Shown here: piece after piece, positions 9,231 through 61,444 of the stretch | Numbering within the stretch: position 1 is the first letter of the stretch | Layout: each line of letters starts with the position of its first letter | Assembly (NCBI GenBank): GCA_030698495.1 | Contig: JAUYKA010000005.1 | Location: forward strand, 8,404 to 72,403 | DNA from: a bacterium | GTDB lineage: Bacteria > Patescibacteriota > Andersenbacteria > UBA10190 | Direction: 5' to 3' | DNA: 64,000 nucleotides | Notes under the pieces: generated by a model | Seen by the model: the letters and a program-made list of their open reading frames with translations, nothing else | Database searches by the model: none | Told to the model about the DNA's origin: nothing | Translations under genes and position numbers: made by a program

Positions 9231-9232
9231 CT

Positions 9233-38390: not shown

Positions 38391-39278
38391 TTAAGCTGCC
38401 TTACCGTCGCTACCAAAAAGTCTAATCTTCTCTTCCACCACCCGTTGCACCGCATCTCTGGCCGGCCCCAGTATTTTACGCGGATCACACTTATCATGCT
38501 CCTGGCCAAAATAACTTTTTACAGCACGCTCAAACGCCAACCGCAGCTCCGTATCCACATTTACTTTACAGACATTAGTATGCGCCACTCTCTGCAAATG
38601 TTCGCTCGCCAGCCCCGAAGCCCCATGAATGACCAACGGCAATGCCGGCAGCTGCTTGGCTATTTCCTCTACTAACTCAAACCTGATATACTCCCGACCA
38701 CTAAACGCACCGTGTATCGTACCAACCGCCACCGCTAAACAATCAACCCCCGTCGCTTCCACAAATTTCTTTGTCTGCGCGGGATTCGTTAGCAACTCAT
38801 CCGAAGGCGCCTCTCCCTGCAAAGTTTTTATCCCTTCCGCCCCTAAAATAGTGCCCAGCTCTGCCTCCACCCACACTCCGTGCGCATGCGCATATTCAAC
38901 CACTTCGCCGGTCAACGCGATATTTTCGTCTATCGGCTTGGTAGAGGCGTCAATCATTACGGAAGTGTATCCGGCCTCAATGCAATTTTTCACCACTGCC
39001 ATACTGTGACCGTGATCCAAATGCATCACCACCGGCACATTTGCTTCCCCTGCCAGGGAACTGATAATCGCTGCTATCTGTTTTTGCCCCGTGTATTCTA
39101 TTGCCCCCTCCGACGTTTGCACTATAACCGGCGCACGTTGTTTCTGTGCTGCCCAGATAATTGCCTGTGTTAACTCTAAATTTGATGTATTAAAAGCGCC
39201 CAATGCGTACTGCATATTAAATGCCTTGGCAAATAATTCACGAGGTTTAACTAACATATCATTATAATAAATTTTCAA
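38391..39278 (-). CDS. fba: Fructose-bisphosphate aldolase class II
   Basis: HLDHG metal-binding motif; the N-terminus is typical of FbaA. Confidence 0.9.
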   Translation of the reverse strand: MKIYYNDMLVKPRELFAKAFNMQYALGAFNTSNLELTQAIIWAAQKQRAPVIVQTSEGAIEYTGQKQIAAIISSLAGEANVPVVMHLDHGHSMAVVKNCIEAGYTSVMIDASTKPIDENIALTGEVVEYAHAHGVWVEAELGTILGAEGIKTLQGEAPSDELLTNPAQTKKFVEATGVDCLAVAVGTIHGAFSGREYIRFELVEEIAKQLPALPLVIHGASGLASEHLQRVAHTNVCKVNVDTELRLAFERAVKSYFGQEHDKCDPRKILGPARDAVQRVVEEKIRLFGSDGKAA

Positions 39279-39328
39279 TTATCAATTTACAATTTTCATT
39301 GAAGCATCAATGATTCAATTTCTAAACA

Positions 39329-40108
39329 TTAAAAAGTTCTTTCAATCTTTTCTACAGCTTTTACAATATTCACAAACTCTGCCGATTTTACCGAAGCGCC
39401 TCCCACCAGCACGCCGTCCACCCCCGGCTCACTAACAAAATCCGCTGCGTTTCCGGCATTTACACTCCCGCCGTATAAAATTCTGATCTTCTCCGCCGCC
39501 TCCGCTCCCAACTTTTCCGCTGCTATTTTCCGAATCAACAGCATAGTCTGCGCCGCTTCCGCCGGATCGGGCGTTTCTCCCGTACCAATCGCCCAGATCG
39601 GTTCATATGCAATTACCAACCGAGACACAGACACTCCGGTTTGTTGGGTAAATATTGCAGTAGCTTGCCGGGTAATCTTACTCACAGTCTCTCCCCTGTT
39701 TCTTTCATCTGCGGTTTCTCCCACACATACAATCGGCGTCAACCCGTGCTTCTGTAACACGTAAACTTTTGCTCTTACCTGCTCGTCCGTCTCCCCAACC
39801 AACTGACGTCGCTCCGAATGCCCCACAATGCACCAGCGCGCAAACGGTGTCAGCTGGGACACCGACACCTCACCCGTCCAGGCTCCTCCTTCTTCCCAAT
39901 GAACATTTTGCGCTCCAAGTTGCACTTTTTCATTTTTTGCTAACTTGGTCGCTACCGCCGGCAAAGACGTAAATGAAGGCGCGATTACTACATCCACATC
40001 CAAATAAATACCGGCTAACATCTTTTTTATCGCTCCGGCAACTTCCAAAGCCGCCTTATGCGATAGATCCATTTTCCAATTTCCAACAACCAAAAACTTA
40101 TTCGCCAT
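39329..40108 (-). CDS. tpiA: Triosephosphate isomerase
   Basis: GNWKMD, GHSERR and AYEPIWAIGTG motifs. Confidence 0.9.
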   Translation of the reverse strand: MANKFLVVGNWKMDLSHKAALEVAGAIKKMLAGIYLDVDVVIAPSFTSLPAVATKLAKNEKVQLGAQNVHWEEGGAWTGEVSVSQLTPFARWCIVGHSERRQLVGETDEQVRAKVYVLQKHGLTPIVCVGETADERNRGETVSKITRQATAIFTQQTGVSVSRLVIAYEPIWAIGTGETPDPAEAAQTMLLIRKIAAEKLGAEAAEKIRILYGGSVNAGNAADFVSEPGVDGVLVGGASVKSAEFVNIVKAVEKIERTF

Positions 40109-40155
40109 ATATCTAGTATATGAATAATTATAAAATTTAGTAATTAAGAAATTGA

Positions 40156-40680
40156 TTAAAAATTATTACCCCAAATCCCCCGTATTGTAAACACCGTTCC
40201 GGCCGTTACCACCAACACAATAACCGCCGATATACAAACACCGACAAAAATCGCCCAAAAAGAACGCGCTCGCGGCAGACCAAAAACAAACGCCGCCAGT
40301 GTTCCTGTCCATGCCCCTGTCACCGGCAAAGGAATAGCCACAAACAAAGCCAATGCCCACACACCGTATTTTGTCACGTTGCCCTGCAACTTAACACGCG
40401 TCCTCGCAAATAAATAATCGAAAAATCTATCCGCTGTCCTTGAATGAACTCTAGACCATTCGGCTATCTTCTCAAAAAATACCAGTAAGAAATACACCGG
40501 CAGCATATTACCCGCTATTGCCAAAAACATTGCTTCCGCCAGCGGCAGCTTATAAACGGTCAGCGCCACCGGTAAAGCTCCGCGCAACTCGCCGATAGGT
40601 ATCATCGCCAGAATTACTGTCGCTACTTCAGGCGGCACCGCTCGCAAAGCATTAATGATTGCAGTCAACATAATAAACAT
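40156..40680 (-). CDS. Small multidrug-export-like membrane protein (COG2426 family)
   Basis: IPIGELRG and VTGAWTG motifs; 4 TM. Confidence 0.5.
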   Translation of the reverse strand: MFIMLTAIINALRAVPPEVATVILAMIPIGELRGALPVALTVYKLPLAEAMFLAIAGNMLPVYFLLVFFEKIAEWSRVHSRTADRFFDYLFARTRVKLQGNVTKYGVWALALFVAIPLPVTGAWTGTLAAFVFGLPRARSFWAIFVGVCISAVIVLVVTAGTVFTIRGIWGNNF

Positions 40681-40690
40681 TCTACACCTC

Positions 40691-41758
40691 TTAACAATTT
40701 TCGCAGTCCCGCAAATGCTCGGCTGCGTCTTCCGGCGCCACGTCCAATATTTCCAGCCCTGTGCCTAGTTCAAACCCGCCCCAAATATTTAATCTGGGCG
40801 TTACCTGCAAATGCCAGCGCCAGCGATCAAAATAATCAGGATTGCAAACCGACCCCGTTGCGCCACAGGGTGCCGAATAAATAAAATAATTAAGCGGCGG
40901 ATCGCCTAACACCGAATACATTCTCTTCAAGGTTTCCTGCAAAGCCCGAGCTAAGGCCTCTCTCTGTCCGGGGTTGATATTGGCAAAATTAGATCCAGGC
41001 TCCTTTGGCATAATCCATGTCTCGTAAGCCACTCGCGGCGCGAACGGACAAAAAACAGTAAACATATCATTCTCCCAGACTACCCGCCTTCCTTCCCGAC
41101 GTTCATATAACAACATGTCTTCAAAAATATCACCGCCAGTTCTCTCGTGATACCTCTGCGCCCCCAGCAGCATATCCTGAACATCGCTGGGCAAAACCGG
41201 CGTGGCAAATATCTGGTGATGCGGATGAGCCAAAGAAGCTCCGGCCGGTACCCCATAATTCCTTATTATCTGTATATAATTCACCGAGGATTTTATCTGC
41301 AACTGCCGGTATCTCAACACCAACGCTTCAATCTCCAGCGCCAAGTCAGCCTCGCTCACCAAACGCTCTACCGCGTTATGATACCTGGTAACCAGCAATT
41401 CGTGCCAACCAACCGCCTCCACCGCCCGATATGGCCCTTCTTGGCGCGAACGAAAATCTTCCTGCGGATGCAGTGCCGGGTATTTATTGGCGAAAACGTG
41501 CACCCGCCAGCTATGCGGATCATCCGGCAAACGAATAACATCCGGCGGTTGCGGATTATCAGCCAAATTACAAAACGGACAATCGTCGCGATACCTTACG
41601 TCATCGTCTCCTTTCTTTTTCTTGCCACCCGCCTTTTTACCATGCGGCCGCTTTGACCGCCCAATAGCCACAATCACCCACTTGCCCGTAATTAAGTCCT
41701 GCCGCAGTTCACCGCCACTTTGTCTCTCGGTTTTTCTTTCTATTAAATCTTTCATCAC
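40691..41758 (-). CDS. galT: Galactose-1-phosphate uridylyltransferase-like HIT-family nucleotidyltransferase
   Basis: CPFC zinc motif and HPHHQ (HxHxQ) active site. Confidence 0.7.
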   Translation of the reverse strand: MMKDLIERKTERQSGGELRQDLITGKWVIVAIGRSKRPHGKKAGGKKKKGDDDVRYRDDCPFCNLADNPQPPDVIRLPDDPHSWRVHVFANKYPALHPQEDFRSRQEGPYRAVEAVGWHELLVTRYHNAVERLVSEADLALEIEALVLRYRQLQIKSSVNYIQIIRNYGVPAGASLAHPHHQIFATPVLPSDVQDMLLGAQRYHERTGGDIFEDMLLYERREGRRVVWENDMFTVFCPFAPRVAYETWIMPKEPGSNFANINPGQREALARALQETLKRMYSVLGDPPLNYFIYSAPCGATGSVCNPDYFDRWRWHLQVTPRLNIWGGFELGTGLEILDVAPEDAAEHLRDCENC

Positions 41759-41956
41759 AATAAACAGATCTTATATTTAACCTGTCAGATAATTTCCAAT
41801 TTTCAATTCTCAATTTTCATATAAACGCCAATGCCCCAATTACCAAATCCTGATACAACGACCGCGTCTTTGTGTCTTGGTCATTGTAATTTATATGGAA
41901 ATTGGAAATTGATCATTGAAAATTTTATTACATACAAAACAACCATTGCGTTAGTT

Positions 41957-42694
41957 TTACCTATCTTTTTTATAAACACCCTGCCAAATATTCAACCTCA
42001 CTTGCACCACTTCCTTTAATACTTCCACATAAGCGGATCCGGAAACTTTGCTATTCGGATCATTAATCCACCTGATCGGCCGCTCCGCTATTTTATAACC
42101 GCGCATTTTGGTCACAGCCAGTGCTTCCACATCAAACCCCCACCGATCAATTGTTAAATAGGGAAACACATCTTCCGCCGCGTAATCAGTAAACACCTTA
42201 AATCCCGCCTGTGTATCTTTGATTCCCGGCACCGCCCAAAACCTAATCCACAAATTTCCCAAATTTCCCAGCCTCTCTTTCCACCAAGCTTGATGCACTC
42301 GTATATCCGATTCTTTTAAATGCCGCGAGCCTATCACCACATCGTAACCCATATCAAAAAAGGTTTTAAATTGCTCAAAATGATCGACTGTCGTGGAATT
42401 ATCCGCGTCCATAAACAAACGGTACTTACCAACTACATGCGTCATCCCGTATCTCACCGCGTATCCTTTGCCGCGATTTGTCCCATACTGCAGTAATTTC
42501 ACCCTCCTGTCCTGCACCGCCGCCTCCCGTACTAAATCCGCTGTCTTATCTTTAGAACCATCATCAACCACTGCCACTTCCCAGGTATATGTCTGCTTAC
42601 TCAAATACGTCAAAACCGCCTTTAAAGTGTGCGGCAATCTCTGTTCTTCGTTATATGCCGGTATCACCACCGACAAAAAAACCTTTTCGTTCAT
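41957..42694 (-). CDS. Glycosyltransferase family 2 (polyprenyl-phosphate glycosyltransferase-like)
   Basis: SVVIPAYNEE, VVDDGSKD and DAD motifs. Confidence 0.8.
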   Translation of the reverse strand: MNEKVFLSVVIPAYNEEQRLPHTLKAVLTYLSKQTYTWEVAVVDDGSKDKTADLVREAAVQDRRVKLLQYGTNRGKGYAVRYGMTHVVGKYRLFMDADNSTTVDHFEQFKTFFDMGYDVVIGSRHLKESDIRVHQAWWKERLGNLGNLWIRFWAVPGIKDTQAGFKVFTDYAAEDVFPYLTIDRWGFDVEALAVTKMRGYKIAERPIRWINDPNSKVSGSAYVEVLKEVVQVRLNIWQGVYKKDR

Positions 42695-42762
42695 GTCTTT
42701 AATATAGCATTATTTCTACAAAACCAGAATCAAAAATATTCTCCGCTTTATAAAAAATGCTG

Positions 42763-43155
42763 TCAGATTTTTTTCAAGTAATCGCTTAGCATCATCCGCG
42801 CCGCTTCGGCATGCGCGTCATCTTTGTCCGCCCCTTCGCTTTTTATCCGACGATCAGCTTCCACGCTAGTGAATGTTTCGTCCACGCCCCCCACCTCAAC
42901 TCGCGGCAACAACCCGCGCAGCTTCTCTATAAAAGCCAAGGACTGCTGGGTCTGGTCAGTTTCTTCACGCAACAAATTCAAGGGTACGCTTACCAGAATT
43001 TTCTCTACCATCTCTTTCTCAACAATATTTTTTATGACCTCCATCGCCTTCTGCTCTTTTTGATCAATTACAGAATGCCGCAACGCGATTTTATTTTCGG
43101 CATCCGTTATCGCCACACCGATATATCTTTTACCGTAATCAAGACAAAGAAGCAT
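42763..43155 (-). CDS. ruvX: YqgF/RuvX-like putative pre-16S rRNA nuclease
   Basis: LCLDYGKRYIGVAITD N-terminus; RNase H-like fold; 130 aa. Confidence 0.8.
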   Translation of the reverse strand: MLLCLDYGKRYIGVAITDAENKIALRHSVIDQKEQKAMEVIKNIVEKEMVEKILVSVPLNLLREETDQTQQSLAFIEKLRGLLPRVEVGGVDETFTSVEADRRIKSEGADKDDAHAEAARMMLSDYLKKI

Positions 43156-43270
43156 GAAATTAACGTAAAATTAAAAACTAAAAACGTAAAACAACAACGT
43201 AAAAACCAAAAGACTGACGACGTTAGCGATATGGTTGTTTTTACTTTTGAGTTGTTGCTTTTCGTTTTTC
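43145..43270 (-). terminator. AAAAC-repeat hairpin family, 3' of map
   Basis: Arms of about 50 nt; shares CGTTTTTCACTTTAAGTTTT with the copy at 45045-45172. Confidence 0.45.
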
Positions 43271-43273
43271 ACT

Positions 43274-44116
43274 TTAAGTTTTTCGCTTACTCGTTAACAC
43301 TACTGGCCCCTCTTCCATCACCGCCACCGTGTGCTCCGCGTGCGCCGATAAGTTCCCGGATTTTATTTTTACCGACCAGCCATCCTCACCAGTCACCACA
43401 ACCGGATTTCCTTTTGTCACCATCGGCTCAATCGCAATCACCAACCCCGGTTCTATTAAAGCGCCGGCGCCTGCTCGGCCGAAGTTCGGCACCTGTGGTT
43501 CCTCATGCACCGCGTAACCAACACCATGCCCGACCAGCTGGCGCACTACTTCAAACCCCGCTGACTCAACATAACGCTGAATGGCACAACCGATATCACC
43601 AATCCTATTCCCTGGCAAAGCCGCCGCTATTCCCCGCTGTAGTGCTTCTTCTGTAACCGCCACTAATTCTTTTGTCTTACCGGATCCGCCTCCGACTATA
43701 ACCGTCTGCGCACTATCCAGATAATATTTACCCCGATAAATCAACCCCAAATCCAAACCAACCACATCCCCGCCAACAAATGGCGCGTCAGTTGGTATGC
43801 CATGTACCACCGCATCATTTATTGAAACACAAAGCGCCGCCGGAAAAGGTTGCTGGCCACTTGAAGCGTAATTCAAGAAAGCCGGTTCGCAACCTCGCGC
43901 CCGAATTAACCGCGTGGCCAATTCATCCAGTTCTGCTCCGGTTGTACCAACCTTAACAACACCGGCCAGTTCTGCCAACACTTCTCCCAGCATCCTTCCT
44001 CCCTCTCTTAATTTCTCTATATCATCCTTGGTTTTTAAGCGAATCACATTATTAGAATTAAGAATTATCCCCCGTCGCCCCGTCTTGACGGGGACTATGG
44101 GGGACAGGTGAATCAA
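43274..44116 (-). CDS. map: Methionine aminopeptidase type I
   Basis: Metal-ligand motifs (GHGVG, HEEP). The start is uncertain between MIHLSP and a downstream codon. Confidence 0.85.
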   Translation of the reverse strand: MIHLSPIVPVKTGRRGIILNSNNVIRLKTKDDIEKLREGGRMLGEVLAELAGVVKVGTTGAELDELATRLIRARGCEPAFLNYASSGQQPFPAALCVSINDAVVHGIPTDAPFVGGDVVGLDLGLIYRGKYYLDSAQTVIVGGGSGKTKELVAVTEEALQRGIAAALPGNRIGDIGCAIQRYVESAGFEVVRQLVGHGVGYAVHEEPQVPNFGRAGAGALIEPGLVIAIEPMVTKGNPVVVTGEDGWSVKIKSGNLSAHAEHTVAVMEEGPVVLTSKRKT

Positions 44117-44206
44117 GAATCAAGACTATCCTCCTTCCCCACCCACCATCCTCTCTACTCTTAATGAGTAATATGCCTTTAATCAACCAAATAGGCAAAG
44201 TCAGTA

Positions 44207-44372
44207 CCAACAAACGATACTCACGGCGCCCGTGCATGAGGGACCGTCTCAAGGCTTGCCGGCCTGGTCTCCGCCTTTAGGCGGAGCGGCAAGCCTTGAG
44301 TCGAGTGCCGCCCGCCGCTGGGGCGGGCAAAGGTGTCACTCATGTGCGGGTGACGGGAGTATCGTTTGTTGG
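44207..44372. repeat. Family E element, copy 4 (between map and adk)
   Basis: Same core; the outer stem is CCAACAAACGATACTC...GAGTATCGTTTGTTGG. Confidence 0.7.
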
Positions 44373-44381
44373 CAACAATAA

Positions 44382-45041
44382 TTAATTCTGCACTTTATCA
44401 ATAACCTTCATCACACTCTTAAAAACCTCCGCCACACTCGGCATCCCGTCCAACTCATGCAGTTCTCCCCGCCGGCGGTACTCCTCCACCACCGGGTATG
44501 TTAACGTCATGAACTGATCCCAGCGCGTCGCAAACTTACCCGGCTCATCATCGGGACGTACCCCTATCATTCCCCTTCTCTCCTCACAGCGGCGTCGGTC
44601 ATCGTCATTAACCACCGGAAAGTCGCCCGACACCCCCAAACAAAACTTGCGCTTAGAATTGCGCTCAATCATCTCTGCCCGATCAACAGCCAGATAGATA
44701 ACCAGCGGTTTCCCATAGTTCTCCTCGGCAAAAAAAAGATCAACAATTTTGGCTTCCGCCACCGTTCTGGGCGTGCCGTCAAAAACCAACCCCCTGCCGG
44801 ATTCAATATGTTCTTTTACCGCCGTCATTACAATTTCAGCAGCCATCTCCGGCGGCGCCAGATACCCGTTATCAATCGTCTCCTTAACGCGGTGCCCTAA
44901 ATCCGTATTCTGACGCGCCACTTCTCGAAACGCATCGCCCGTACTGAACTGATGATAACCAATTTTTTCCGCCAGCATTTTTGCCTGCGTCCCTTTTCCT
45001 GCACCTGGTGCACCCATAATATAAATAATTTTTGGCAACAT
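44382..45041 (-). CDS. adk: Adenylate kinase
   Basis: P-loop GAPGAGKGTQA; LID region with Cys/acidic residues. Confidence 0.9.
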   Translation of the reverse strand: MLPKIIYIMGAPGAGKGTQAKMLAEKIGYHQFSTGDAFREVARQNTDLGHRVKETIDNGYLAPPEMAAEIVMTAVKEHIESGRGLVFDGTPRTVAEAKIVDLFFAEENYGKPLVIYLAVDRAEMIERNSKRKFCLGVSGDFPVVNDDDRRRCEERRGMIGVRPDDEPGKFATRWDQFMTLTYPVVEEYRRRGELHELDGMPSVAEVFKSVMKVIDKVQN

Positions 45042-45044
45042 GAA

Positions 45045-45172
45045 AAATAAAAGTTAAAAACTAAAAGCGAAAAACAACAACGCAAAAATAAAAACAACTA
45101 CGCCGACGTCGGTCTTTTTGCTTTTGCGTTGTTGTTTTGCGTTTTTCACTTTAAGTTTTACGTTTACGAAAA
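45045..45172 (-). terminator. AAAAC-repeat hairpin family, 3' of secY
   Basis: GCGAAAAACAACAACGCAAAA pairs with TTTTGCGTTGTTGTTTTGCG; shared motif CGTTTTTCACTTTAAGTTTT. Confidence 0.45.
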
Positions 45173-46465: not shown

Positions 46466-46603
46466 ATATTTAAACTAATACTACAATTCCCAATGCACAA
46501 TTTCCAATTTCCATATAATACCCAATGCACAATAATCAAATATCAAATAGTGTCGTTATTGTATTGGGAAATTGGCTATTGATTATTATATGAAAATTGA
46601 AAA

Positions 46604-47047
46604 TTACGCGATTATCTCCACTTTACCGCCCGCTTTCTCCACCCGCTCCTTGGCCGCTTCGCTCACACCATGAACCCTGACAGTCAGCTTCTTATCTACT
46701 AACCCGGACACTATCAACTTGACCCGATCGGACCGACCCGAAATCCAACCAAGCTTTTTCATTTGTCCCGGTCCAACCACCGTTCCGTCATCAAACCTTT
46801 GTAATTGTCCCGTGCTTACCGTTAATACCCGTACTCTCTTTTTGGTCATGCGATGTTTTGTCCCTCTGCCTTTCGGCAAACGCATATACAAAGGCGTTTG
46901 CCCGCCTTCAAAACCAAGCTTGCGGCTGTAACCGGCTCGCGAGCGCTGTCCCTTCATCCCTCGTCCCGACTTGGCTCCCCGCCCGCCAATACCGCGGCCA
47001 ACCCGCTTTTTCCGCTTAACAATTTTTGGTAACTCGTGTAAAAACAT
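46604..47047 (-). CDS. rplO: Ribosomal protein L15
   Basis: Conserved sequence; position in the spc operon. Confidence 0.9.
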   Translation of the reverse strand: MFLHELPKIVKRKKRVGRGIGGRGAKSGRGMKGQRSRAGYSRKLGFEGGQTPLYMRLPKGRGTKHRMTKKRVRVLTVSTGQLQRFDDGTVVGPGQMKKLGWISGRSDRVKLIVSGLVDKKLTVRVHGVSEAAKERVEKAGGKVEIIA

Positions 47048-47049
47048 AT

Positions 47050-47592: not shown

Positions 47593-47608
47593 AGTTTTAT
47601 TTTTTCAG

Positions 47609-47956: not shown

Positions 47957-47973
47957 AGCGGTATTCTTCTTAA

Positions 47974-48519: not shown

Positions 48520-48599
48520 AACTTTTTAGCTTAACTAACCTATTAGCAATACTAAACAATATAATACAAACCAATAATTAGCAAGAGACGCTATTTTCT

Positions 48600-48986: not shown

Positions 48987-49016
48987 AATAATTTGAAGAT
49001 TGAAAATTGATATCTG

Positions 49017-49202
49017 CTACCAGGAAGATTTTCGCACGCCCGGAACATGCCCCCGCTCGGCATTCTCCCTAAAACAAATGCGACACAAACCGAAATCCCG
49101 CATGTAGCCTCGCTTGCGTCCGCATAAGGCGCACCGCCTGACAAGCCGAGAAGTAAACTTCGGGACTTTTCTGCTTTTTGCTTTTTGCGCTTCTGTTGCC
49201 AT
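49017..49202 (-). CDS. rpsZ: Ribosomal protein S14 type Z (zinc-binding, 61 aa)
   Basis: CxxC...CxxC zinc motif ([20 protein letters not shown]). Confidence 0.9.
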
Positions 49203-50322: not shown

Positions 50323-50360
50323 CTTATTAGCTTATCTAGCTTATTAACTTATCTCGCCAA

Positions 50361-50732: not shown

Positions 50733-50875
50733 ATATACTTATCTCGCTTATCAACTTATCTTACTTTGCCCGCCGGCCGTGTCCCTCCGTAGCCTTGTGC
50801 GGAGGGGGACCGTGTCCCTCCGTAGCCTTGTGCGGAGGGGGAAGCTTTAGCGAAGGCTGGGCTTATCTCGCTTAA
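50733..50875 (-). repeat. Intra-operon repeat element, copy 1 (GATAAG-repeat leader plus tandem-duplicated hairpin TCCCTCCG-N10-CGGAGGGA plus a segment encoding DKPSLR-stop)
   Basis: Near-identical copy at 53117-53235. Its distal end supplies the last 6 codons and the stop codon of rpsQ. Confidence 0.7.
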
Positions 50876-51774: not shown

Positions 51775-51788
51775 ATCAATAGTCTCCT

Positions 51789-52541: not shown

Positions 52542-52579
52542 ACTTTATTATTTGAAAATTGATAATTGAAAATTGTTTG

Positions 52580-53116
52580 TTATCCTTCTCCCATCGACTT
52601 GCGCCGATAGGATTTATGCGCATCGCCACCCTGCTGCGGCATTCTTTTTATATTACGCACATCCTTCTGTTTTTCTTTTACTTCGGATACTTCTTTACTC
52701 GGCGTCTGCCCGGCAACAAAATCTTCAGCGGCTATGGTTTCGATCTGACTCTTCTTTCCCTTCCTGGCCGCCCCTTTGGCCACGCCGATTTCTTCCAGCA
52801 CCACCGTCACGTGGGCAGTCCGCTTTAAAATCGGATGGGCCGATCCTTTACTGGCCGGTTGGGAACGCTTCATCACAAAACCGCCGTCCACTACCATATC
52901 CGCTACTCCCAGAGAGGCTTCTTCGATAGAATAATTATGTTGGGCGTTTGCCATCGCGCTGCGCAATACATTTCCCACTAAGTCGGCTGCTTTCCCCGGC
53001 ATAAACTCAAGCTGCGCTCTAGCCTCCACCGCCGACAAGCCAACAATTGCCTCACGAATCAATCGCAGCTTTCTCGCCGCTATCCTGGCATTCTTATGTT
53101 GTGCTTTTACTTCCAT
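52580..53116 (-). CDS. rplV: Ribosomal protein L22 (with a charged C-terminal extension of about 60 aa)
   Basis: Conserved L22 core. Confidence 0.85.
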   Translation of the reverse strand: MEVKAQHKNARIAARKLRLIREAIVGLSAVEARAQLEFMPGKAADLVGNVLRSAMANAQHNYSIEEASLGVADMVVDGGFVMKRSQPASKGSAHPILKRTAHVTVVLEEIGVAKGAARKGKKSQIETIAAEDFVAGQTPSKEVSEVKEKQKDVRNIKRMPQQGGDAHKSYRRKSMGEG

Positions 53117-53235
53117 ATGCTTATTATCTTATTTACTTATCTCGCTTATTAACTTATTTTACTTTGCCCGCCGGCCGTGTCCCTCCGTAGCCTTGTGCGA
53201 AGGGGGAAGCTTTAGCGAAGGCTGGGCTTATCTGC
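53117..53235 (-). repeat. Intra-operon repeat element, copy 2 (ATAAG x5 leader plus hairpin plus DKPSLR-stop segment)
   Basis: See copy 1. Supplies the C-terminal DKPSLR and the stop codon of rpsS. Confidence 0.7.
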
Positions 53236-53544
53236 CGCCGGCTTTATCGCCGCAGCTGCGGCGGCCGCCATCTCCGCCTCTTTCTGTATGCGTCCACCAT
53301 GTTTAACAAACTTGCGTGTTGGCGAAAATTCTCCCAGTTTATGCCCTACCATTTCCTCAACTACCAGCACTTCCACGTGTTCGCGTCCGTTGTGCACGCC
53401 AAACCTGAAACCGACCATTTCTGGATATATCGTAGAGGAACGCGCCCAGGTTTTTATAACCGTACGATCACCGGCTTTTAGACGCTTAACTTTGGCTAAA
53501 AGTTTCGGTTCAATGTATGGTCCTTTTTTGGTTGATCTAGACAT
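53212..53544 (-). CDS. rpsS: Ribosomal protein S19
   Basis: Conserved sequence; the C-terminal AADKPSLR is encoded by the repeat. Confidence 0.9.
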
Positions 53545-53566
53545 AATTTAGAAATTGAAAATTGTA

Positions 53567-54412
53567 TTAACGCCTTTTTTTCTTAGTCCGACGTTTTAAT
53601 ATCATACTATCCGAATACTTTCCCTTACGCCGTGTTTTAACCCCCAGCGCCGGCTTCCCCCATAAAGTCTTAGGATGCTTCAAACCGATTGGCTGCGCAC
53701 CTTCACCGCCACCATGAGGATGATCAACCGGATTCATCGCCTTGCCTCGCACTTGAGGCCTTCGTCCGCGCCGACGCATTCTCCCGGCCGATCCCGCCCG
53801 TTCCAGCCAGGCATCGGCATTACTCGCTTCGCCTATAGTGGCATACGCCTCCCTCGCAATCAAGCGGATTTCACCGGATGGCATTTTCAGCTGCGCGTGC
53901 CCGCCTTTTACATCCATTAGTACAGCCGATGCCCCCGCCGCCCGCAATATCTGACCGCCGCGTCCCGGTTTCAGCTCCACATTAAAGACCGCTGTTCCCG
54001 GTGTTATCGCTTTCAGAGCCATCCGATTTCCGGGTTTTTCCGGCGCTTTATCGCTAACAACAATTTCATCTCCTTCTCTCGCGCCTTCCCAGGAAACCAC
54101 ATAGCGACGCTCGCCGTCCCGGTATAACAACAGTGCTAAAAAAGCCGAGCGGTTTGGATCATACTCTATCTTTTCCACTTTGGCCGGAATATCTTTTTTA
54201 TCCTGTCTGAAATCGACTACACGCCACAATCTCTTGGCGCCTCCGCCGCGATGCCGCACTGTTATAATACCCTGTGAACCTCTCCCGTTTAAACGTTTTC
54301 GGCCCACCACTAACGACCGATGCGGCTTACCCGCGCTTAAATCCCGCCGATCAATAACCGACATATTTTTTCTGGCTGCGCGATTTGTTTTGTAATTTCT
54401 GACTGGCATCAC
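53567..54412 (-). CDS. rplB: Ribosomal protein L2
   Basis: Conserved sequence. Confidence 0.9.
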   Translation of the reverse strand: MMPVRNYKTNRAARKNMSVIDRRDLSAGKPHRSLVVGRKRLNGRGSQGIITVRHRGGGAKRLWRVVDFRQDKKDIPAKVEKIEYDPNRSAFLALLLYRDGERRYVVSWEGAREGDEIVVSDKAPEKPGNRMALKAITPGTAVFNVELKPGRGGQILRAAGASAVLMDVKGGHAQLKMPSGEIRLIAREAYATIGEASNADAWLERAGSAGRMRRRGRRPQVRGKAMNPVDHPHGGGEGAQPIGLKHPKTLWGKPALGVKTRRKGKYSDSMILKRRTKKKRR

Positions 54413-54438
54413 TTTTACTATTAACTAAAGACTAATAA

Positions 54439-54861
54439 CTAAACCGTAAAATCGATTGTTTTTCCGGCCGGCAGTTTCACGTACGCTTTTTTCCAGTAGT
54501 TTGTCTGTCCGCTGGTTGCGCCGCGCCGTCTATTTTTTGCCGGCATGTTCATTGTCCGCACCATAACCGGCTCAATCTTATATTGCTCCAAAACCGCTGC
54601 CGCTATCTGATTTTTGTTTGCGTCGCAGCTAACCCGGAAAACAACTGTATTCGTATCACTCTGCGCATCGACTCCTTTTTCCGTTACTAACGCAACCAAC
54701 CCAATTTTTCCGGCCAAAACAGATACTTCTCTATCAACCACGTCTGGCTTATCCGCCAATTTCATTTTTGGTTTAGCCAAACTCACCGGACTCTTCTTCG
54801 TCGGCTTTTTTTTGCCTGGCACACTACCGGGTTCTCTTTTTAAAAATGATAGTACAGACAT
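54439..54861 (-). CDS. rplW: Ribosomal protein L23 (with a basic N-terminal extension)
   Basis: Conserved L23 core. Confidence 0.85.
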   Translation of the reverse strand: MSVLSFLKREPGSVPGKKKPTKKSPVSLAKPKMKLADKPDVVDREVSVLAGKIGLVALVTEKGVDAQSDTNTVVFRVSCDANKNQIAAAVLEQYKIEPVMVRTMNMPAKNRRRGATSGQTNYWKKAYVKLPAGKTIDFTV

Positions 54862-54865
54862 ATTA

Positions 54866-55552
54866 TTATGCTTTTATTTCTACACTTGACTTGCCGCAAC
54901 GTCTCTCAACCTCCGGCAACGCTGTCCTGGCCAACCATACTTTCCTGGCCACCATCAAATCGGATACTGTTGCTTGCGCCACCGGCATCACTTTAATCGC
55001 CGGCAAATTTCTCGTTGCTCTGGCTAAAGAACCGGACTCCCCCGCGGCTGTCAGAATCAACAACCCCCGGCAATCCGCCGGCAGCTTCTCTTTTATTTCG
55101 TTTGTTTTAACGGGCAAATCCTTGTTTATCTCAACCACTGCCAATCGATCCGCTTGCGCTAAATTATATAAAACTCCCGCGAAGGCGCGTCTTTTCATTG
55201 CTGTCGGCACCGGCAGAACCCTTGTCTTACGTGAGCGGGGACCAAAAGTTATTCCGCCGCCAACCCATATCGGCGATCTGATTGAACCGTGTCTGGAATT
55301 ACCCGTGCCCTTCTGTTTCCATGGCTTTCTTCCGCCGCCACGCACTTCCGCTCTGCCTTTGGTATGTGCCCGACGCACTCGCACTCTTTTTTGGTGCGTT
55401 AACACAGTCTGCGCCAACAATCTGTCTGAAACCTCTTTTATTATGTATTCCGGCCAAGGCATAACTCCCGTTGGCTTGCCGCCCAAATCAACAACCGCCA
55501 GCTCGTTTTTCGTCTGTTTACGATTATCGATTTTTTTAGGTTCAGAATTCAT
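54866..55552 (-). CDS. rplD: Ribosomal protein L4
   Basis: Conserved sequence. Confidence 0.9.
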   Translation of the reverse strand: MNSEPKKIDNRKQTKNELAVVDLGGKPTGVMPWPEYIIKEVSDRLLAQTVLTHQKRVRVRRAHTKGRAEVRGGGRKPWKQKGTGNSRHGSIRSPIWVGGGITFGPRSRKTRVLPVPTAMKRRAFAGVLYNLAQADRLAVVEINKDLPVKTNEIKEKLPADCRGLLILTAAGESGSLARATRNLPAIKVMPVAQATVSDLMVARKVWLARTALPEVERRCGKSSVEIKA

Positions 55553-55567
55553 TTATGTAATCAAAGA

Positions 55568-56128
55568 TTAATCAACTTGCTTGATTTCCAACACAGCCCC
55601 CCGCCTACCCGGCACCGCCCCCCTTATCGCCAGTACATTTTGTTCTGCGTCCACCGCCGCCACCCGCAAATTTTTCACCGTCACCCGATCGGCACCCATG
55701 CGCCCCGCCATCCGCACTCCCTTTCTGGTGTGCTGGGGATACCGGGAACCGATTGACCCGGGACGACGCAATACATGCCTGTGGCCATGACTAGCCGGAC
55801 CGCCCTTAAAATGATGGCGCTTAACCACCCCTTGAAAGCCCTTCCCCTTGGAAACCCCGCTTACTTCCACCGTGTCGCCAACCTCAAACTGCCCGACACC
55901 CAACTCTTCCACGTCTTGAGCCACTTCAATAGCAAATTCTTTCTTTATTGAATATTTCCCCTTTCGATCCACCATACCCAGCTGAACCGCTTCGTACCCA
56001 TCCCTAGCTTCACTGCGCCTTAAAGTTACTTTATTAGGCACAGCTTCCACCAAGGTAACAGCCAACACTTCTCCCTCGGGAGAAAACATCTGCGACATAC
56101 CGATTTTTCTTCCTAACAAAGCTTTCAT
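55568..56128 (-). CDS. rplC: Ribosomal protein L3
   Basis: Start MKALLGRKIGMSQMF (ATG at 56126-56128). Confidence 0.9.
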   Translation of the reverse strand: MKALLGRKIGMSQMFSPEGEVLAVTLVEAVPNKVTLRRSEARDGYEAVQLGMVDRKGKYSIKKEFAIEVAQDVEELGVGQFEVGDTVEVSGVSKGKGFQGVVKRHHFKGGPASHGHRHVLRRPGSIGSRYPQHTRKGVRMAGRMGADRVTVKNLRVAAVDAEQNVLAIRGAVPGRRGAVLEIKQVD

Positions 56129-56382
56129 AACAAACTGAACATTATTTAAACAAAAAACCACTCACCTTAAAACCGAGAGGTTTTTATCTAGCTATCAGAC
56201 ATGACCGCGTACTGTTTACCCTGAGCGAGCGAAGCGAGTCGAAGGGCCCCCTCGACAACCCTCAATCACCAGGCGTACATCATCCGCGACTAATCTAAGG
56301 CTGGTTATACTATAAATAATCCTGCCCAAAAACGCAAATTTATTCCTCTACTTCTCAAAGCGAAAAGTTGTTTCTGTCCTTC

Positions 56383-56739
56383 CTAACCTGTTTTCATCGA
56401 CACATCAACCCCCGCCGGAAGATTCAAACTCATCAGAGTATCTACCGTTCTTGGTGTTGATTCCACAATATCAATTAACCGCTTGTGTACTCGAATCTCA
56501 TACTGATCCCTGGAATTCTTATGCACAAACGTCGATCGATTAACCGTGTATTTTTTCTTACTGGTAGGCAACGGTACCGGACCGGCTATTTTGCCGCCCT
56601 CCCGCTCAACCGCGTCAACAATCTGTTTAGCTGATTGATCGATCAGCTTATGATCGTAGGCCTTCAGTTTTATCCGAATGCGCGGCACCGCCGGTGCTGG
56701 AGTTTCTTCTGTCTCTTTCGTTGCCGCTTTTGCGTTCAT
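56383..56739 (-). CDS. rpsJ: Ribosomal protein S10
   Basis: Conserved sequence. Confidence 0.9.
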
Positions 56740-56786
56740 GCAGTTCGAGTTACAAGTTCCAAGTTATAAGTTATAAGTTATGAGTT

Positions 56787-57980
56787 CTACTCAATAATTT
56801 TCGTCACCACACCGGCGCCGACCGTCCGGCCGCCTTCGCGGATGGCAAAGCGCATGCCGTCTTCCATAGCTACTGCTGAAACCAACTCAACTTTCAAATC
56901 AACTTCATCACCGGGCATAACCATCTCGGCACCCTCGGGCAATTCAACCGAACCGGTAACATCAGTCGTTCTCACATAAAACTGCGGCTTATATCCCTTA
57001 AAGAATGGTGTGTGCCTTCCGCCTTCATCTTTGGTGAGAATATACACCTTACACTCGAATTTCTTATGCGGCGTAATGGTACCGGGTTTGGCCAATACTT
57101 GCCCGCGCTCGACATCTTCCTTCTTTAGTCCGCGCAACAGCACCCCGGCATTGTCACCAGCCTGGCCTTCATCCAACTGTTTGTTAAACATTTCTATACC
57201 GGTTACCACCGTTTTCTGCGTCTCACGCAAACCGACAATTTCCACCTCATCATTAAGATTAACCTTACCGCGCTCAATCCGTCCGGTCACCACCGTACCG
57301 CGTCCTTCAATACTAAACACATCTTCAATCGGCATCAGGAAAGGCTTTTCCACATCGCGTACCGGCTCCGGAATCGTCTCGTCTAAAGCAGTGATCAAAT
57401 CAACAATCGGCTTGGCCGCTTCGTCATCCGGACTTTTGGTATCCAACGCTTTTAGCGCCGAACCGCGAATAACCTTAATGTTTTTCCCGTCATATTTATA
57501 CTTCGTCAGTAATTCCCGCACTTCCTCTTCCACTAAATCAACCAACTCCGGATCGTCCACTTGATCCACTTTGTTCAGAAAAACCACAATCGCCGGCACA
57601 CCAACTTGATAGGCCAGCAAAATATGCTCGCGTGTCTGCGGCATCGGACCATCAGTTGCCGAAACAACCAATACCGCGCCATCCATCTGGGCGGCTCCGG
57701 TAATCATGTTCTTGATGTAATCGGCATGCCCGGGACAATCCACATGCGCGTAATGCCTCTTGTCCGATTCATACTCACAATGAGTCGTGGAAATGGTGAT
57801 ACCACGCGCTTTTTCTTCCGGAGAGTTATCAATTTCGTCAACGGTAAGAACTTTCTTAGCCCCGCCCTTCATGCCCATAACGTGCAAAATTGCAGCCGTC
57901 AGGGTTGTCTTGCCGTGATCAACGTGTCCAATTGTTCCCACGTTGACATGCGGCTTTGATCGATCAAACTTCTCTGCCAT
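56787..57980 (-). CDS. tuf: Translation elongation factor Tu
   Basis: GHVDHGKTT and DCPGH motifs; start [19 protein letters not shown] (ATG at 57978-57980). Confidence 0.95.
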
Positions 57981-58218
57981 ATGTTTGTTGCTTTTAATAA
58001 TAATCAAAAAACCCTCCGACGTTTCAGCCACCCGCCTATTTTGCGCCGCAAATATTGACAGGCGTCGAGGTTACCTATTTTGTAACACAAGCCGTTTTAA
58101 ATGTAAACACCTTTTTTCAGTATCCTAAACCCTCACTATTCTGGCACACCACACTCAATCAATTATTGAAAAAATAAAAATTAAATGGAAATTGAAAATT
58201 GATAATTGAAAATTGTAT

Positions 58219-58665
58219 CTATTCCTGCAGCTCCGGCGGCAAGTCCCCCCTGATCGGTTCAAACCTGATTCTTCGCGGCGGCTCGTATGCTCTCTTTTGC
58301 AACTCCTCCCCAACCAACGTCGGTTCTTCCTCCTCAACCATATCGCCTTGCTCTATTTCTTCACTGTCAAACTCCATTTCTTCCTCTTCCGGATCCTGTC
58401 CCTGCCTATCTTGATCTTGCTGCCACTGAAAAAGAGCAATATCCCGGTTAATCTTATCCAACATATCGCCCGCGGAAGGTACTTCCTCGACTTCTCCCGC
58501 ACCGGGCAAAGCCAGTTGCACGTCTCTCACCGACTGCTGCAAATCCTCAAAATCTTCCTTGGCTGTTATCACATACTCCCTCCCATCTCCGGCCGGAAAC
58601 ACAAAATAACCGCCCAACTCCCGCAAAGCCGCGATTACCATCTCAATTGAACCATTATCTAACAT
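58219..58665 (-). CDS. Hypothetical acidic protein located between fusA and tuf
   Basis: 148 aa; the N-terminal 60 aa resemble a YefM/Phd-like fold (weak); C-terminal poly-Asp/Glu tail. Confidence 0.45.
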   Translation of the reverse strand: MLDNGSIEMVIAALRELGGYFVFPAGDGREYVITAKEDFEDLQQSVRDVQLALPGAGEVEEVPSAGDMLDKINRDIALFQWQQDQDRQGQDPEEEEMEFDSEEIEQGDMVEEEEPTLVGEELQKRAYEPPRRIRFEPIRGDLPPELQE

Positions 58666-58715
58666 CTATTTAAATTACCCCTATACAGTAAAGACAGCAA
58701 GGGCAGCGGCTGTAT

Positions 58716-60821
58716 TTACTTACCCCTGCCTGTCTGCTTTAAGCCGACAATCTCGTCCTGGATATTCTTTGGCACACCTTCGTAATGATCAAACTCCATC
58801 GAATATATCGCCCGACCGGAAGTCAGTGAACGTAACGCCGTAGCATAACCAAACATTTCCGCCAACGGCACCGTCGCGTCAATTACCTTGATGTTACCCC
58901 TGTCTTCAATGCTATTTATTTGTCCGCGTCTGGAATTAACATCTCCCACCACATCGCCCATGTGCTTCTCCGGCGTTGTCACCTCGATTTTCATAATCGG
59001 CTCCAGCAATACGGGACTGGCTTTCTTAAACGCCGCGCGAAAGGCCATCGAACCGGCAATCTTAAAGGCAATTTCCGAACTGTCTACTTCATGGTAGCTG
59101 CCGTCAAAAGCGATGGCTTTCACGTCAACCACCGGGTATCCGGCCAGCACGCCGTTATTAGCCGCTTCATTTACCCCTTTACCGATAGGTGTAATATACT
59201 CCTGCGGTACCGTGCCTCCTTTGATTTGACTCTCATACTCAACCCCGGCGCCACGCTCTTGCGGCTCCAGCCTTAGCCACACATGACCATACTGACCACG
59301 GCCGCCGCTCTGTTTGATGTATCTCCCTTCCGCTTCGGCCACTTTGCGAATGGTTTCCTTGTACGCCACCTGCGGTTTTCCCACATTAACTTCCACCCCA
59401 AACTCTCTCTTCAACCGATCGGCAATAATTTCCAAATGCAGCTCACCCATCCCCTGCATAATCGTCTGCAAAGTTTCTGCGTCCGTTTTCACGCGGAAAG
59501 TGGGATCTTCACTCTGCAAAGCCTTCAACGCCATACCCATCTTTTCCTGATCCGCTTTAGTCCTTGGTTCCACCGCGATGGAAATAACCGGCTCCTGCCC
59601 CACAATGCGTTCCAGTAAAATCGGCTGGTCCTGGTCACACAAAGTATCGCCGGTAGTTGTATTCTTCAAGCCAACCAGCGCGCCGATTCCGCCCGCGCCG
59701 ATTTCTTTCACATCTTCGCGATCATTGGAATGCATCCGCAATATGCGGCTGATTCTTTCTTTTCTGCCATTGGAAGCGTTAAGAACATACGATCCGGAAG
59801 TTAACCTGCCCGAATAAACACGAAAATATGTAATTTGTCCGACAAAAGGATCGGTTGCCACCTTAAACGCCAGCGCCGCAAACGGTTCATTATCTTCCGG
59901 TTTTCTTTGGAGTTTCACTTCGTGGTTGTCCGGATCTGTTCCTTCCACCGGCGGCAAATCCATCGGCGACGGCAGATAATCAACAATCGCGTCCAAAACT
60001 AACTGCACCCCTTTATTCTTCAAAGCCGAACCGCACAACACCGGCACCACCTCGCCCTTGATAACCGCCCGGCGCAATACTGCCTTCAGATCATCAATCA
60101 CCATCTCCTCTCCGTTTAAGAATTTCTCAATCAAAGCTTCATCAAAACCGGCGATCTTCTCAACCGTCTCATCTCGATATTTAGCCGCTTCTTCTCTTAA
60201 TTCCTGCGGAATATCCTTCCACACAACTTTTTCTCCTTTTTGTCCTTCAAAATACACCGCCTGATTGCGCAGTAGATCCACCACTCCTTCCAGTTTGTCT
60301 TCTGTCCCGATCGGTATATTCATGATCACTGTTTTGTCCGTCAGTCGCTCATGAATCGACCCTACCGCCTTCCAAAAATCCGCTCCGGTTCGGTCCAATT
60401 TATTGATAAAACACATGCGCGGTACCTGATACTTATCCGCTTGACGCCATACTGTTTCACTCTGCGGCTCTACTCCCGCCACACCGTCAAACACCACTAC
60501 TGCTCCATCCAAAACACGCAGACTACGCTCTACCTCTACGGTGAAATCAACGTGCCCCGGCGTGTCAATCAAATTCAAGCGATGCCCCTGCCAAAAACAG
60601 GTGGTTGTCGCTGACGTAATGGTAATGCCGCGCTCCCGTTCCTGTTCCATCCAGTCCATCACCGCCGCGCCTTCGTGCACCTCACCGATTTTGTGTGTTA
60701 AGCCGGTATAAAAAAGCACTCGCTCCGATACGGTGGTTTTACCGGCGTCAATGTGGGCAATGATACCGAAATTTCTTACTTTTTCGATAGTAACACTGGG
60801 AAATTGTTTTAAGTCACTCAT
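58716..60821 (-). CDS. fusA: Translation elongation factor G
   Basis: AHIDAGKTT and DTPGH motifs; 701 aa with five domains. Confidence 0.95.
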
Positions 60822-60946
60822 ACTATCAATCTTTAATTTCCAATTTCCAATTTCCCCACGCGAATAGCGTCGTTTCGTCGTGTTTGCTAATTGTAAATTG
60901 GCAATTCAATGGAAATTGAAAATTGTAAATTGGAAATTTTAGCTAC

Positions 60947-61420
60947 TTACGCAAAGTGGCTAAATGCCCGGTTCGACTCCGCCATCCGATGCACATCGTC
61001 GCGCTTCTTTATCGCCGCGCCTTCCTTATTGGATGCCGCGATAATTTCCGCTGCTAACTTTTCCGCCATACTTTTGCCGGAACGATTGCGCGCCGCGTCC
61101 CGCAGCCAGCGCATCGCCAATGTCTCTTTCCTGTCCCCGCGCACTTCAATCGCCACCTGATAATTCGCCCCCCCTATACGCCGCGCTTTCACTTCCAAAA
61201 CCGGCGATACGTTTCTTATCGCGTTATCAAATACCAGTAGGGGATCGTTTTTTGTCTGCGCCGAAACCAATTCCAAGGCATCATAAACCACTTTTTGCAC
61301 CGTGTTTTTTTTACCACCCTTCATCAGATGATTGATGAATTTGGACAACATCAAATTACCGAACTTCGGATCCGGCTTTAAAAACTTTTTATTCTTATAG
61401 ACTCTTTTACGTCGCGGCAT
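60947..61420 (-). CDS. rpsG: Ribosomal protein S7
   Basis: Conserved sequence. Confidence 0.9.
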   Translation of the reverse strand: MPRRKRVYKNKKFLKPDPKFGNLMLSKFINHLMKGGKKNTVQKVVYDALELVSAQTKNDPLLVFDNAIRNVSPVLEVKARRIGGANYQVAIEVRGDRKETLAMRWLRDAARNRSGKSMAEKLAAEIIAASNKEGAAIKKRDDVHRMAESNRAFSHFA

Positions 61421-61444
61421 GGTTTGAAAATTGAAATTTGAAAA

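Follow-up and report, generated by a model that had tools for sequence, protein, structure and literature searches.

The intercistronic spacers of a bacterial str-S10-spc ribosomal protein gene cluster appear, on balance, to have been colonised and expanded by dispersed elements built of seven-nucleotide units, which would be tolerated beside start codons because translation initiation is independent of Shine-Dalgarno (SD) pairing and an open, A/U-rich leader suffices. The cluster is located in a 64-kb stretch of DNA (the window), the sole part of the genome that was analysed, and runs on the minus strand from 61867 to 45164 as rpsL-rpsG-fusA-(orf148)-tuf-rpsJ...rplO-secY, with adk, map, ruvX, a GT2 glycosyltransferase gene, a galT-like gene, tpiA and fba following 3′ of secY. 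The minus strand carries nearly all genes of the window; a strong skew of G over C marks the coding strand, and the GC content is about 48-49%. The elements in the spacers form dispersed families, among them CAATTTY, TAACTTR, ATAAG(N3) and AAAAACN, and are to be classed with the long simple-sequence repeats (LSSR), the short tandemly repeated repetitive (STRR) sequences and the TAACTGA repeats of other bacteria, to which the present families are new additions; no description of CAATTNN strings, or of heptamer repeats in Patescibacteria, was found in the literature.

That AT-rich short tandem repeats fill many of the minus-strand spacers of the cluster, as stated in a preliminary description of this DNA, is evident far above chance. 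When an array is required to have at least 12 of 14 self-matches at period 7 over three copies, with local shuffles as background, the window contains 16 arrays against 0.7 expected, a density of 0.25 per kb, and 15 of the 16 lie in non-coding DNA, which makes up only 12.7% of the bases. The same strict criterion returns no array in the window at periods 8 to 12, while the period-6 arrays are all coding and those of period 5 are fewer than expected. The unit is accordingly 7 nt long, not 5 to 8 nt as first described, and the ATAAG family alone has a period of about 8. Tandem Repeats Finder reports about 30 period-7 arrays in the window, the autocorrelation of intergenic sequence peaks at lags 7 (z = 9.4) and 14 (z = 5.9), and the pattern (CAATTNN)x3 has 16 matches against 0.03 expected. 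Three properties of intergenic heptanucleotide repeats of the LSSR/STRR type, head-to-tail 7-nt units beyond chance, a non-coding bias and a sporadic distribution with rapid turnover between relatives, are thus found here. The repeats are identical in a contig of GCA_034372665.1 and in the Logan assemblies SRR26726065 and SRR13727534, all recognised by identical RpsS and RplN and 99.95-100% identical to the window, so that an artefact of a single assembly can be excluded.

The orthologous spacers in related genomes provide an argument that the arrays are additions. In relatives, sampled as 26 genome loci and 20 metagenome loci, the genes either overlap or are separated by very short spacers (typically TAA-CCT-ATG), and the array-bearing spacers of 22-138 nt in the window correspond to medians of -4 to 28 nt. 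Period-7 arrays are absent from 20 of the 26 genome loci and from most of the metagenome loci, so the leaders are not shared across the clade, a check that the preliminary description had proposed. Where relatives do carry arrays, their units are other or merely similar (AATTTCT, AAGTAKC, GAAAATA and CAATTTY in L010, L022, L025 and L026, with an inverted array pair before rpsC in L010), and three metagenome loci (L029, L039 and L040) likewise have different units or arrays in different spacers. Even L025 and L026, with a median protein identity of 85%, differ in that only one of them has an array in the same spacer. Minimal and mostly array-free orthologous spacers indicate that the arrays are recent, labile insertions specific to this genome and not a conserved initiation signal. 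Together with the occurrence of the same elements at distant loci, they bear out the alternative offered in the preliminary description, a dispersed repeat family that has colonised intercistronic spacers. The relatives in question are not close: the best RpsC matches, at 65-78% identity, are metagenome-assembled genomes (MAGs) named Candidatus Andersenbacteria or mislabelled "Saccharibacteria", and the closest in scans of genome collections and metagenomes reach 78-81% at most, which makes a comparison at the strain level impossible.

Judged from these protein matches, the window is part of a Candidatus Andersenbacteria-like genome of the candidate phyla radiation (CPR)/Parcubacteria; NCBI taxonomy places the Andersenbacteria in the Parcubacteria group of Patescibacteria. 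The gene order agrees, as the gap from rpsE to rplO is 2 nt and the L30 gene is absent between the two, which fits a CPR bacterium since uL30 is reported to be missing in every CPR genome (PMC9297842).

The second part of the argument concerns the start codons themselves. SD-like sequences, taken as any 4-mer of AGGAGGT at positions -20 to -4, are present in only 5 of 63 leaders of the window and in 69 of 419 leaders of relatives, and in a set of 58 window leaders the 6 observed compare with 10.3 +/- 2.6 from shuffles. A GGAGG-like motif 4-13 nt upstream of starts is not above chance, and the array-bearing spacers have no SD. The earlier claim that no SD precedes about 40 start codons therefore holds throughout the window and in the relatives, except that rplP has AGAGGAG at about -14 to -8; an SD-like AAGAGGTG is also found at the gene at 40680. 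Judged from the mRNA side, from which loss and sequestration of the anti-SD sequence look alike, SD pairing is essentially absent in this lineage. No rRNA gene was found in the window by Rfam or in 48 related loci by a motif scan. The absence of SD sequences from the mRNAs fits the loss of the anti-SD published for Parcubacteria, in which the motif is undetectable in about half (~52%) of the 16S genes (Tsurumaki et al., PMC9297842). As in the SD-independent initiation of Bacteroidota and the anti-SD-less Parcubacteria described there, the leaders here are SD-free, A/U-rich and accessible; unlike in those systems, the signal that stands out most here is U at -1, and the relatives have CCU AUG.

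That U, at 68% of the window genes and 82% of the genes of relatives, is the only strong start-site signal. It might reflect extended pairing with A37 of the initiator tRNA. The gene starts of relatives, and of the phage contigs considered below, were taken from homology or first-AUG heuristics. In many relatives among the 26 genome loci the context is (C)CU-AUG, C being found at -2 in 48% and at -3 in 33%, and it frequently follows directly on the stop codon of the preceding gene (TAACCTATG). The start regions are also weakly structured, with an opening energy of about 5-6 kcal/mol against 10 kcal/mol at sites internal to coding sequences (p = 4e-9). As a separate observation, AGGAGG occurs 11 times inside coding sequence against 27.3 expected from synonymous-codon shuffles (0.40 of expectation, z = -3.6), which could stem from avoidance of internal SD-like sites or from codon-pair bias. 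The depletion is not relied on as a sign that the anti-SD is active, since control motifs deviate as strongly, GGCGG being at 1.59 of its expectation.

The largest family of elements, Family A, has the unit C-A-A-T-T-T-(T/C) at 12 sites with 42 units in register, of which positions 1-5 are conserved at 83-100% and positions 6-7 are variable. Eight sites carry CAATTTY on the mRNA strand and four its complement, three of the latter being 3′ arms of hairpins. The arrays of the window described below, and the hairpins built from them, are on the minus strand unless noted. Single arrays fill the 24-nt rpsL-rpsG spacer (61421..61447, ttttcaaatttcaattttcaaacc) and the rplB-rpsS spacer (53545..53567) and occupy the rplV-rpsC spacer (52545..52580) and the rpsN-rpsH spacer (48987..49016), the last of which is 30 nt long once rpsN is recognised as the 61-aa open reading frame (ORF) at 49202..49017. 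A further array at 58178..58219 contains the 25-mer acaattttcaattatcaattttcaa, which recurs identically at the rpsC leader; it begins 1 nt past the stop codon of orf148, whereas the tuf AUG is 205 nt away downstream, so its earlier assignment as a leader of tuf was wrong. At 39262..39300 an array of the CAATTNN family in the complementary (GAAAATT) orientation lies 17 nt upstream of the fba start.

In other spacers two arrays face each other across a central segment and form hairpins of 20-45 bp. In the rpsG-fusA cassette (60822..60946; minimum free energy (MFE) -33 kcal/mol, z -4.9) the 5′ arm (AATTTCC/AATTTAC/AATTTTC)n at 60885-60942 and the 3′ arm (GGAAATT)3 at 60830-60858 enclose a GC-richer centre. 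The rplO-secY cassette (46466..46603, z -2.6) has inverted CAATTTY/GGAAATT arms and folds from the first nucleotide past the stop codon, and the GT2-galT cassette (41790..41935), with an (AATTTTC/AATTTCC) arm, a centre and a (GAAAATT/GAGAATT) arm, gives the strongest hairpin (MFE -43, z -5.7). The three long hairpins named in the preliminary description thus do fold, with z-scores of -2.6 to -5.7. For secY and galT, however, the CAATTTY array reported as their leader is the distal arm, and it is its complement (GGAAATT/GAAAATT) that stands proximally, 30-35 nt from the AUG. The central segments differ between copies, and solo arms are common.

A second set of hairpins, Family B, comprises four structures of 120-150 nt with an A-rich 5′ arm of (AAAAACN)n and a T-rich 3′ arm. 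One, in which AAAAACN is followed by NGTTTTT heptamers, separates secY and adk (45042..45163, z -3.8), genes that overlap in the relatives; the others are in the map-ruvX spacer (43156..43273), at 17952..18100 together with a GC hairpin, and at 9100..9232, beginning 2 nt past a stop codon. The last lies in a gene-free spacer of 592 nt (8641-9232), in which the sequence 3′ of the hairpin is GC-rich and apparently structured but has no Rfam match at the gathering threshold.

The TAACTTR family is found upstream of rpsJ, where TAACTTA/GAACTTG/TAACTCG heptamers fill the tuf-rpsJ spacer (56740..56786), and in the spacer between a SIS (gmhA-like) gene and a pfkB-family kinase gene previously called hldA (2986..3022). 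The near identity of these two distant leaders is confirmed by a 21-mer with one difference (56747-56767 and 2999-3019). Likewise confirmed is the ATAAG element before rplV, rplN and rplX, three occurrences of a roughly 23-nt unit GATAAGTTRATAAGCKAGATAAG, which as gataagttaataagctagataagctaataag fills the rplN-rplX spacer (50323..50360). Before rplV and rplN the ATAAG array is joined to a GC hairpin, CCTCCG-CACAAGGCTA-CGGAGGG, to form Family C, of which the first copy (53117..53233) comprises the last 22 nt of rpsS, the hairpin ccttcgCACAAGGCTAcggaggg and an ATAAG period-8 array up to the rplV AUG. In the second copy (50733..50868) the last 22 nt of rpsQ are followed by a perfect tandem pair of the 33-nt hairpin unit (100% identity) and ATAAG repeats up to the rplN AUG. 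An 83-nt element is 93% identical between the two loci, and an adjoining stretch of 59 nt, which covers the last 22 nt of both upstream genes, is 98% identical. Because the element reaches into the ends of these genes, RpsS and RpsQ share the C-terminal sequence DKPSLR*, which is found in no relative.

Further heptamers are scattered over the window. The rplW-rplB spacer (54410..54438) has TTAG-ending units (ttattag tctttag ttaatag), reported by Tandem Repeats Finder at period 14, the pgk-eno spacer and the end of pgk (34776..34810) contain (ATTAGCN) units, and the gap leader (37038..37064) has a TTATTCT-type array. Two arrays, (GTTAAAC/GTTAAAG) and (TTTGACT/TTTAACC), are located in the rpsL 5′ untranslated region (61876..61943), downstream of the best promoter-like site (62038..62010), and a (CTTACTA)-type array on the plus strand (62903..62940) directly precedes the start of rpmB (L28) at 62941.

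The coexistence of several unrelated unit families in one genome supports the view that the arrays are passengers of the spacers. Under this model arrays of 7-nt units would arise and lengthen through replication slippage, would be copied among spacers via recombination or gene conversion, at times together with a few upstream codons, and by inverted duplication around a central segment would give rise to the long AU-rich hairpins. Initiation, in turn, would require just a leader that is A/U-rich and has little structure, typically with U at -1, so that the arrays would be spacer-filling and compatible with SD-independent initiation without being a dedicated signal for it. The hairpin cassettes probably have secondary effects at the RNA level, for instance in delimiting cistrons, in mRNA processing or stabilisation, or in holding stop and start codons near each other.

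The position of the arrays invites a different explanation, as 9 of the 15 non-coding arrays, including that of plus-strand rpmB, end at most 17 nt from a start codon. The arrays might then be functional RNA elements of SD-independent expression, A/U-rich single-stranded standby or landing sites for ribosomes, bound by bS1, a cold-shock protein or another oligonucleotide-binding (OB)-fold protein at about 7 nt per domain, while the inverted-pair hairpins, which start 0-5 nt past stop codons, would punctuate the polycistronic mRNA (RNase III processing, 3′-end protection or termination-reinitiation coupling). In the window this possible but rather doubtful role meets several difficulties. Arrays do stand directly upstream of many start codons, as first described, but they abut stop codons as frequently, and both orientations are present; the leaders with arrays are no more accessible than others (p = 0.39 for solo arrays, p = 0.67 for hairpins); the orthologous genes in most relatives begin array-free behind tiny spacers; and many different units per genome speak against one sequence-specific binder. 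In the hairpins there is no consistent difference in stability between the sense and antisense strands and there are few G-U pairs, and this lack of asymmetry indicates that the symmetry is at the level of DNA. No cold-shock protein gene was found in the window by motif search. The S1- or protein-dependent initiation signal suggested in the preliminary description is, as a requirement, not supported in view of the array-free starts of relatives, the stop-adjacent and oppositely oriented copies and the equal accessibility.

A precedent for the landing-site interpretation is nevertheless found in the TAACTGA repeats of marine Beggiatoaceae, some Cyanobacteria and Bacteroidetes, which occur just upstream of starts, including in ribosomal protein operons, in spacers where SDs are rare and which lack the repeats in relatives; binding by S1, Csp or CsrA was proposed for them, without a test (MacGregor 2015, PMC4679880). 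Like the present arrays, the TAACTGA repeats are short tandem runs of a 7-nt unit (2-6 copies there), are intergenic and occur in ribosomal protein operons (fusA, L3, S4). They mostly stand a few nucleotides upstream of starts, as part of the arrays of the window do. Their spacers rarely have an SD, their phylogenetic distribution is sporadic and the spacers of relatives are shorter and repeat-free. Two units of the window are one base away from TAACTGA, namely TAACTTA and TAATTGA (CAATTAT when reverse-complemented and rotated), although none is TAACTGA itself. In contrast to the one dominant family there, several unrelated families are present here, both orientations, stop-proximal copies and hairpin-forming inverted pairs are common, and SD sequences, essentially lacking in the CPR host here, are used at about 25% in the genome from the Beggiatoaceae.

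More support for a role in initiation comes from viruses. A scan of IMG/VR for (CAATTNT)x4 returned at least 120 stretches, against 44 and 81 for two permuted-unit controls, and the results that follow refer to the matches listed. The CAATTNT contigs have a median GC content of 0.51 and a median of 5 copies per array, compared with 0.30, with many giant-virus bins, and 6-7 copies in the controls. They hold 406 period-7 arrays, 83% of them non-coding, at a median density of 0.34 per kb and a maximum of 1.5, and several heptamer families are found per contig. The end of the array lies less than 20 nt upstream of the AUG of a long ORF in 36% of 141 cases in the sense orientation and in 16% in the antisense orientation, whereas the controls give 10-12% and 0%, respectively. 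This orientation bias means that a facultative role of the arrays in initiation may still exist. Of 106 contigs, 69 appear to be SD-poor, an estimate that rests on crude start calls with no baseline. In one phage (L068/L103), TTGACAA-type arrays are found upstream of normal SDs.

The viral arrays further resemble those of the window in their arrangement. An inverted partner is present within 150 nt of 16% of the arrays against 4% of control regions, and in L107/L075, L126 and L137 intergenic cassettes consist of an array, a segment of about 10-60 nt and an inverted array, with GC hairpins in L107/L075 and L137 (for example L107 1825-1942 and 7953-8072, L126 5836-5917, and L137 5308-5429). This layout is that of the rpsG-fusA, rplO-secY and GT2-galT spacers. 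No description of such phage cassettes was found in the searchable literature. At least one contig, L095, is related to Bacteroides phages, its terminase being 51-61% identical to terminases of Bacteroides phages and human faecal phage contigs, and no period-7 arrays were found in two of its GenBank relatives, MT836083 and Bacteroides phage BKO1-TP4. In a search for hosts L107 had no match, and L137 matched only unannotated faecal phage contigs.

These parallels allow an even broader interpretation, though an unlikely one: heptad arrays and cassettes could form a general, modular element of gene expression wherever SD pairing is not relied upon, spanning the CPR, Bacteroidota and their phages, some cyanobacteria and Beggiatoaceae. 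An OB-fold protein, either bS1 or a cold-shock protein with about 7 nt per domain, would read the single-stranded array in register and load ribosomes at the adjacent AUG, with the hairpin form punctuating the mRNA. If true, this would supply a function for the heptanucleotide repeats, known since 1990 with none assigned.

The DNA-level symmetry of the hairpins, in turn, would fit a role of the arrays as DNA, in which a nucleoid-associated or regulatory protein would bind them as phased sites or they would be promoter- or terminator-like cassettes, with their proximity to starts reflecting transcription. A 5-nt conserved core with two variable positions at a fixed 7-nt spacing is compatible with this, and some phage units (TTGACAA/TTGTCAA) contain a -35 hexamer followed by an SD and an AUG, phage cassettes flank terminator-like GC hairpins with T-runs, and the rpsL 5′ region has TTGACT/TTGACA-like heptads. 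In the region, however, neither promoter-like sites (27 against 23.1 expected) nor terminator-like sites (23 against 21.3) are enriched, and none of the good matches is an array. CAATTTY units match -35/-10 elements weakly, most arrays are within a conserved operon where internal promoters are unexpected, and features of intrinsic terminators are lacking, the CAATTTY hairpins being AU-rich without a U-tract and the Family B arms T-rich with stems of 30-45 bp. A role in DNA binding or transcription thus seems decidedly improbable. Nor do the elements match known RNA families such as ribosomal protein leaders or riboswitches: in an Rfam 15 scan of the window RNase P alone reaches the gathering threshold, and at E <= 1 the region 39000-62200 gives nothing but two hairpins that match plant miRNA precursors by chance.

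Lastly, dispersed imperfect palindromes in intergenic DNA that are insertions relative to the relatives, one of which supplies the stop and last codons of two genes, recall mobile elements. Repetitive extragenic palindromes (REP) and bacterial interspersed mosaic elements (BIME) are imperfect palindromes in intercistronic or 3′ operon regions, with many dispersed copies that can form RNA hairpins. In the present elements, unlike in these, the arms are AU-rich heptad repeats, and neither an element-wide consensus nor an associated transposase is seen. Spread as REP-like elements or miniature inverted-repeat transposable elements (MITEs) by a transposase encoded elsewhere in the genome, for example a REP-associated tyrosine transposase (RAYT) or an IS200/IS605-type enzyme, is very improbable: the elements show no recognisable terminal inverted repeats with target-site duplications, hairpin centres are not conserved between copies, solo arms are common, and no transposase is among the 20 window proteins scanned.

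Colonisation of the spacers by tolerated heptanucleotide elements has to be weighed against observations of its own. The units are imperfect, and a conserved CAATT core with two variable positions resembles a maintained motif more than a young product of slippage. No variation in array copy number is seen across the three assemblies or samples, which possibly represent one population, and neither a mobilising enzyme, among the 20 window proteins scanned, nor a target-site duplication was found. In addition, the abundance of the CAATTNT family in mid-GC phage contigs, the 2.3-fold orientation bias toward nearby starts and the stereotyped cassettes, all among the matches listed, are hard to square with pure neutrality in compact phage genomes.

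The known heptanucleotide repeats offer a comparison on this point. Heptanucleotides are the most abundant class of long simple-sequence repeats in many bacteria, and slippage has been proposed as their origin (Mrazek 2007, as cited in PMC4679880 and PMC4692102). LSSR with heptanucleotide units, the STRR of cyanobacteria and the GGGAATC repeats of Xanthomonas share with the present arrays the 7-nt period and the intergenic bias, three heptamer types are described in Calothrix PCC 7601 and inverted arrangements in Xanthomonas (PMC4692102), and length and sequence vary between close relatives, for which slippage is proposed. The units of the window differ in that they are A/T-rich and not G-rich or G-quadruplex-forming, the arrays are short and imperfect, and they cluster in an operon that is highly conserved, in a genome that is reduced.

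Several other features of the window deserve a brief description. Just upstream of tuf (57981-58060, minus strand, ggctgaaacgtcggagggttttttg) and of rplC (56129-56200, minus strand, aaaacctctcggttttaaggtgagtggttttttg) there are hairpins followed by a T-run that are terminator- or attenuator-like and whose position and form are kept in most relatives; the rpsJ-rplC spacer is long across the clade (220-1477 nt). Between fusA and tuf, orf148 (58219-58665, minus strand) encodes an acidic protein of 148 aa with no Pfam match, at a position kept in relatives with a protein identity of 28-43%. One intrinsic-terminator hairpin (AAACGGCTCAAGCG..CGCTTGAGCCGTTT) is present in three copies (21946-21985, 25499-25538 and 63168-63207); at 63185-63190 the last copy differs from the NCBI MAG in the loop only, which accounts for five of the six differences found in 12 kb. 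The RNase P RNA (19838-20354, plus strand; bacterial class A, 170.6 bits) is on the strand opposite to nearly all genes and, with 517 nt against a model of 367 positions, has large insertions.

A GC-rich structured element of 120-145 nt, Family D, occurs in four minus-strand copies (1285-1408, 3690-3822, 38216-38358 and 44229-44350). Its conserved core has a CCAGCGG loop and the elements CTCAAG..CTGCC..CCGCC/GGCGG..GACCRGGCYGGCA..CTTGAGACGGTC, while the long outer stem is wholly different in sequence in each copy, yet almost perfectly Watson-Crick paired, with compensatory changes at 14 of 43 pairs. It has no Rfam match at E <= 1 and no counterpart in a covariance-model search of 575 kb of relatives' loci, and a pattern of its 19-nt core is matched by ten viral contigs.

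The segment at about 22000-31000 is an island of low GC content (37-43% against about 49%) that is probably a mobile or defence island. It contains genes for a TdeIII-type restriction endonuclease, an N6/N4 DNA methylase, Fic, RadC, a MerR/excisionase-like helix-turn-helix protein and a NUDIX protein, as well as the sole large plus-strand gene of the window (27880-28986, no Pfam match). A 23-nt repeat, ATTCACGCGTTTTTCCTGATTTT, is identical at 29080 and 30810 and recurs at 26504 with 78% identity.

In the most conserved bacterial operon of a reduced, SD-free CPR genome, spacers that are otherwise minimal have been expanded up to about 30-fold, while those of relatives have stayed compact. The comparison separates necessity from tolerance, as the arrays are unneeded for initiation, and SD-free initiation appears to tolerate almost any A/U-rich leader. 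Intergenic repeats with heptanucleotide units have been on record for decades, from cyanobacteria, Xanthomonas, Beggiatoaceae and Bacteroidetes, with no established function, and since Bacteroides phages and their hosts are cultivable, effects of heptad arrays on translation and mRNA processing would be testable there.

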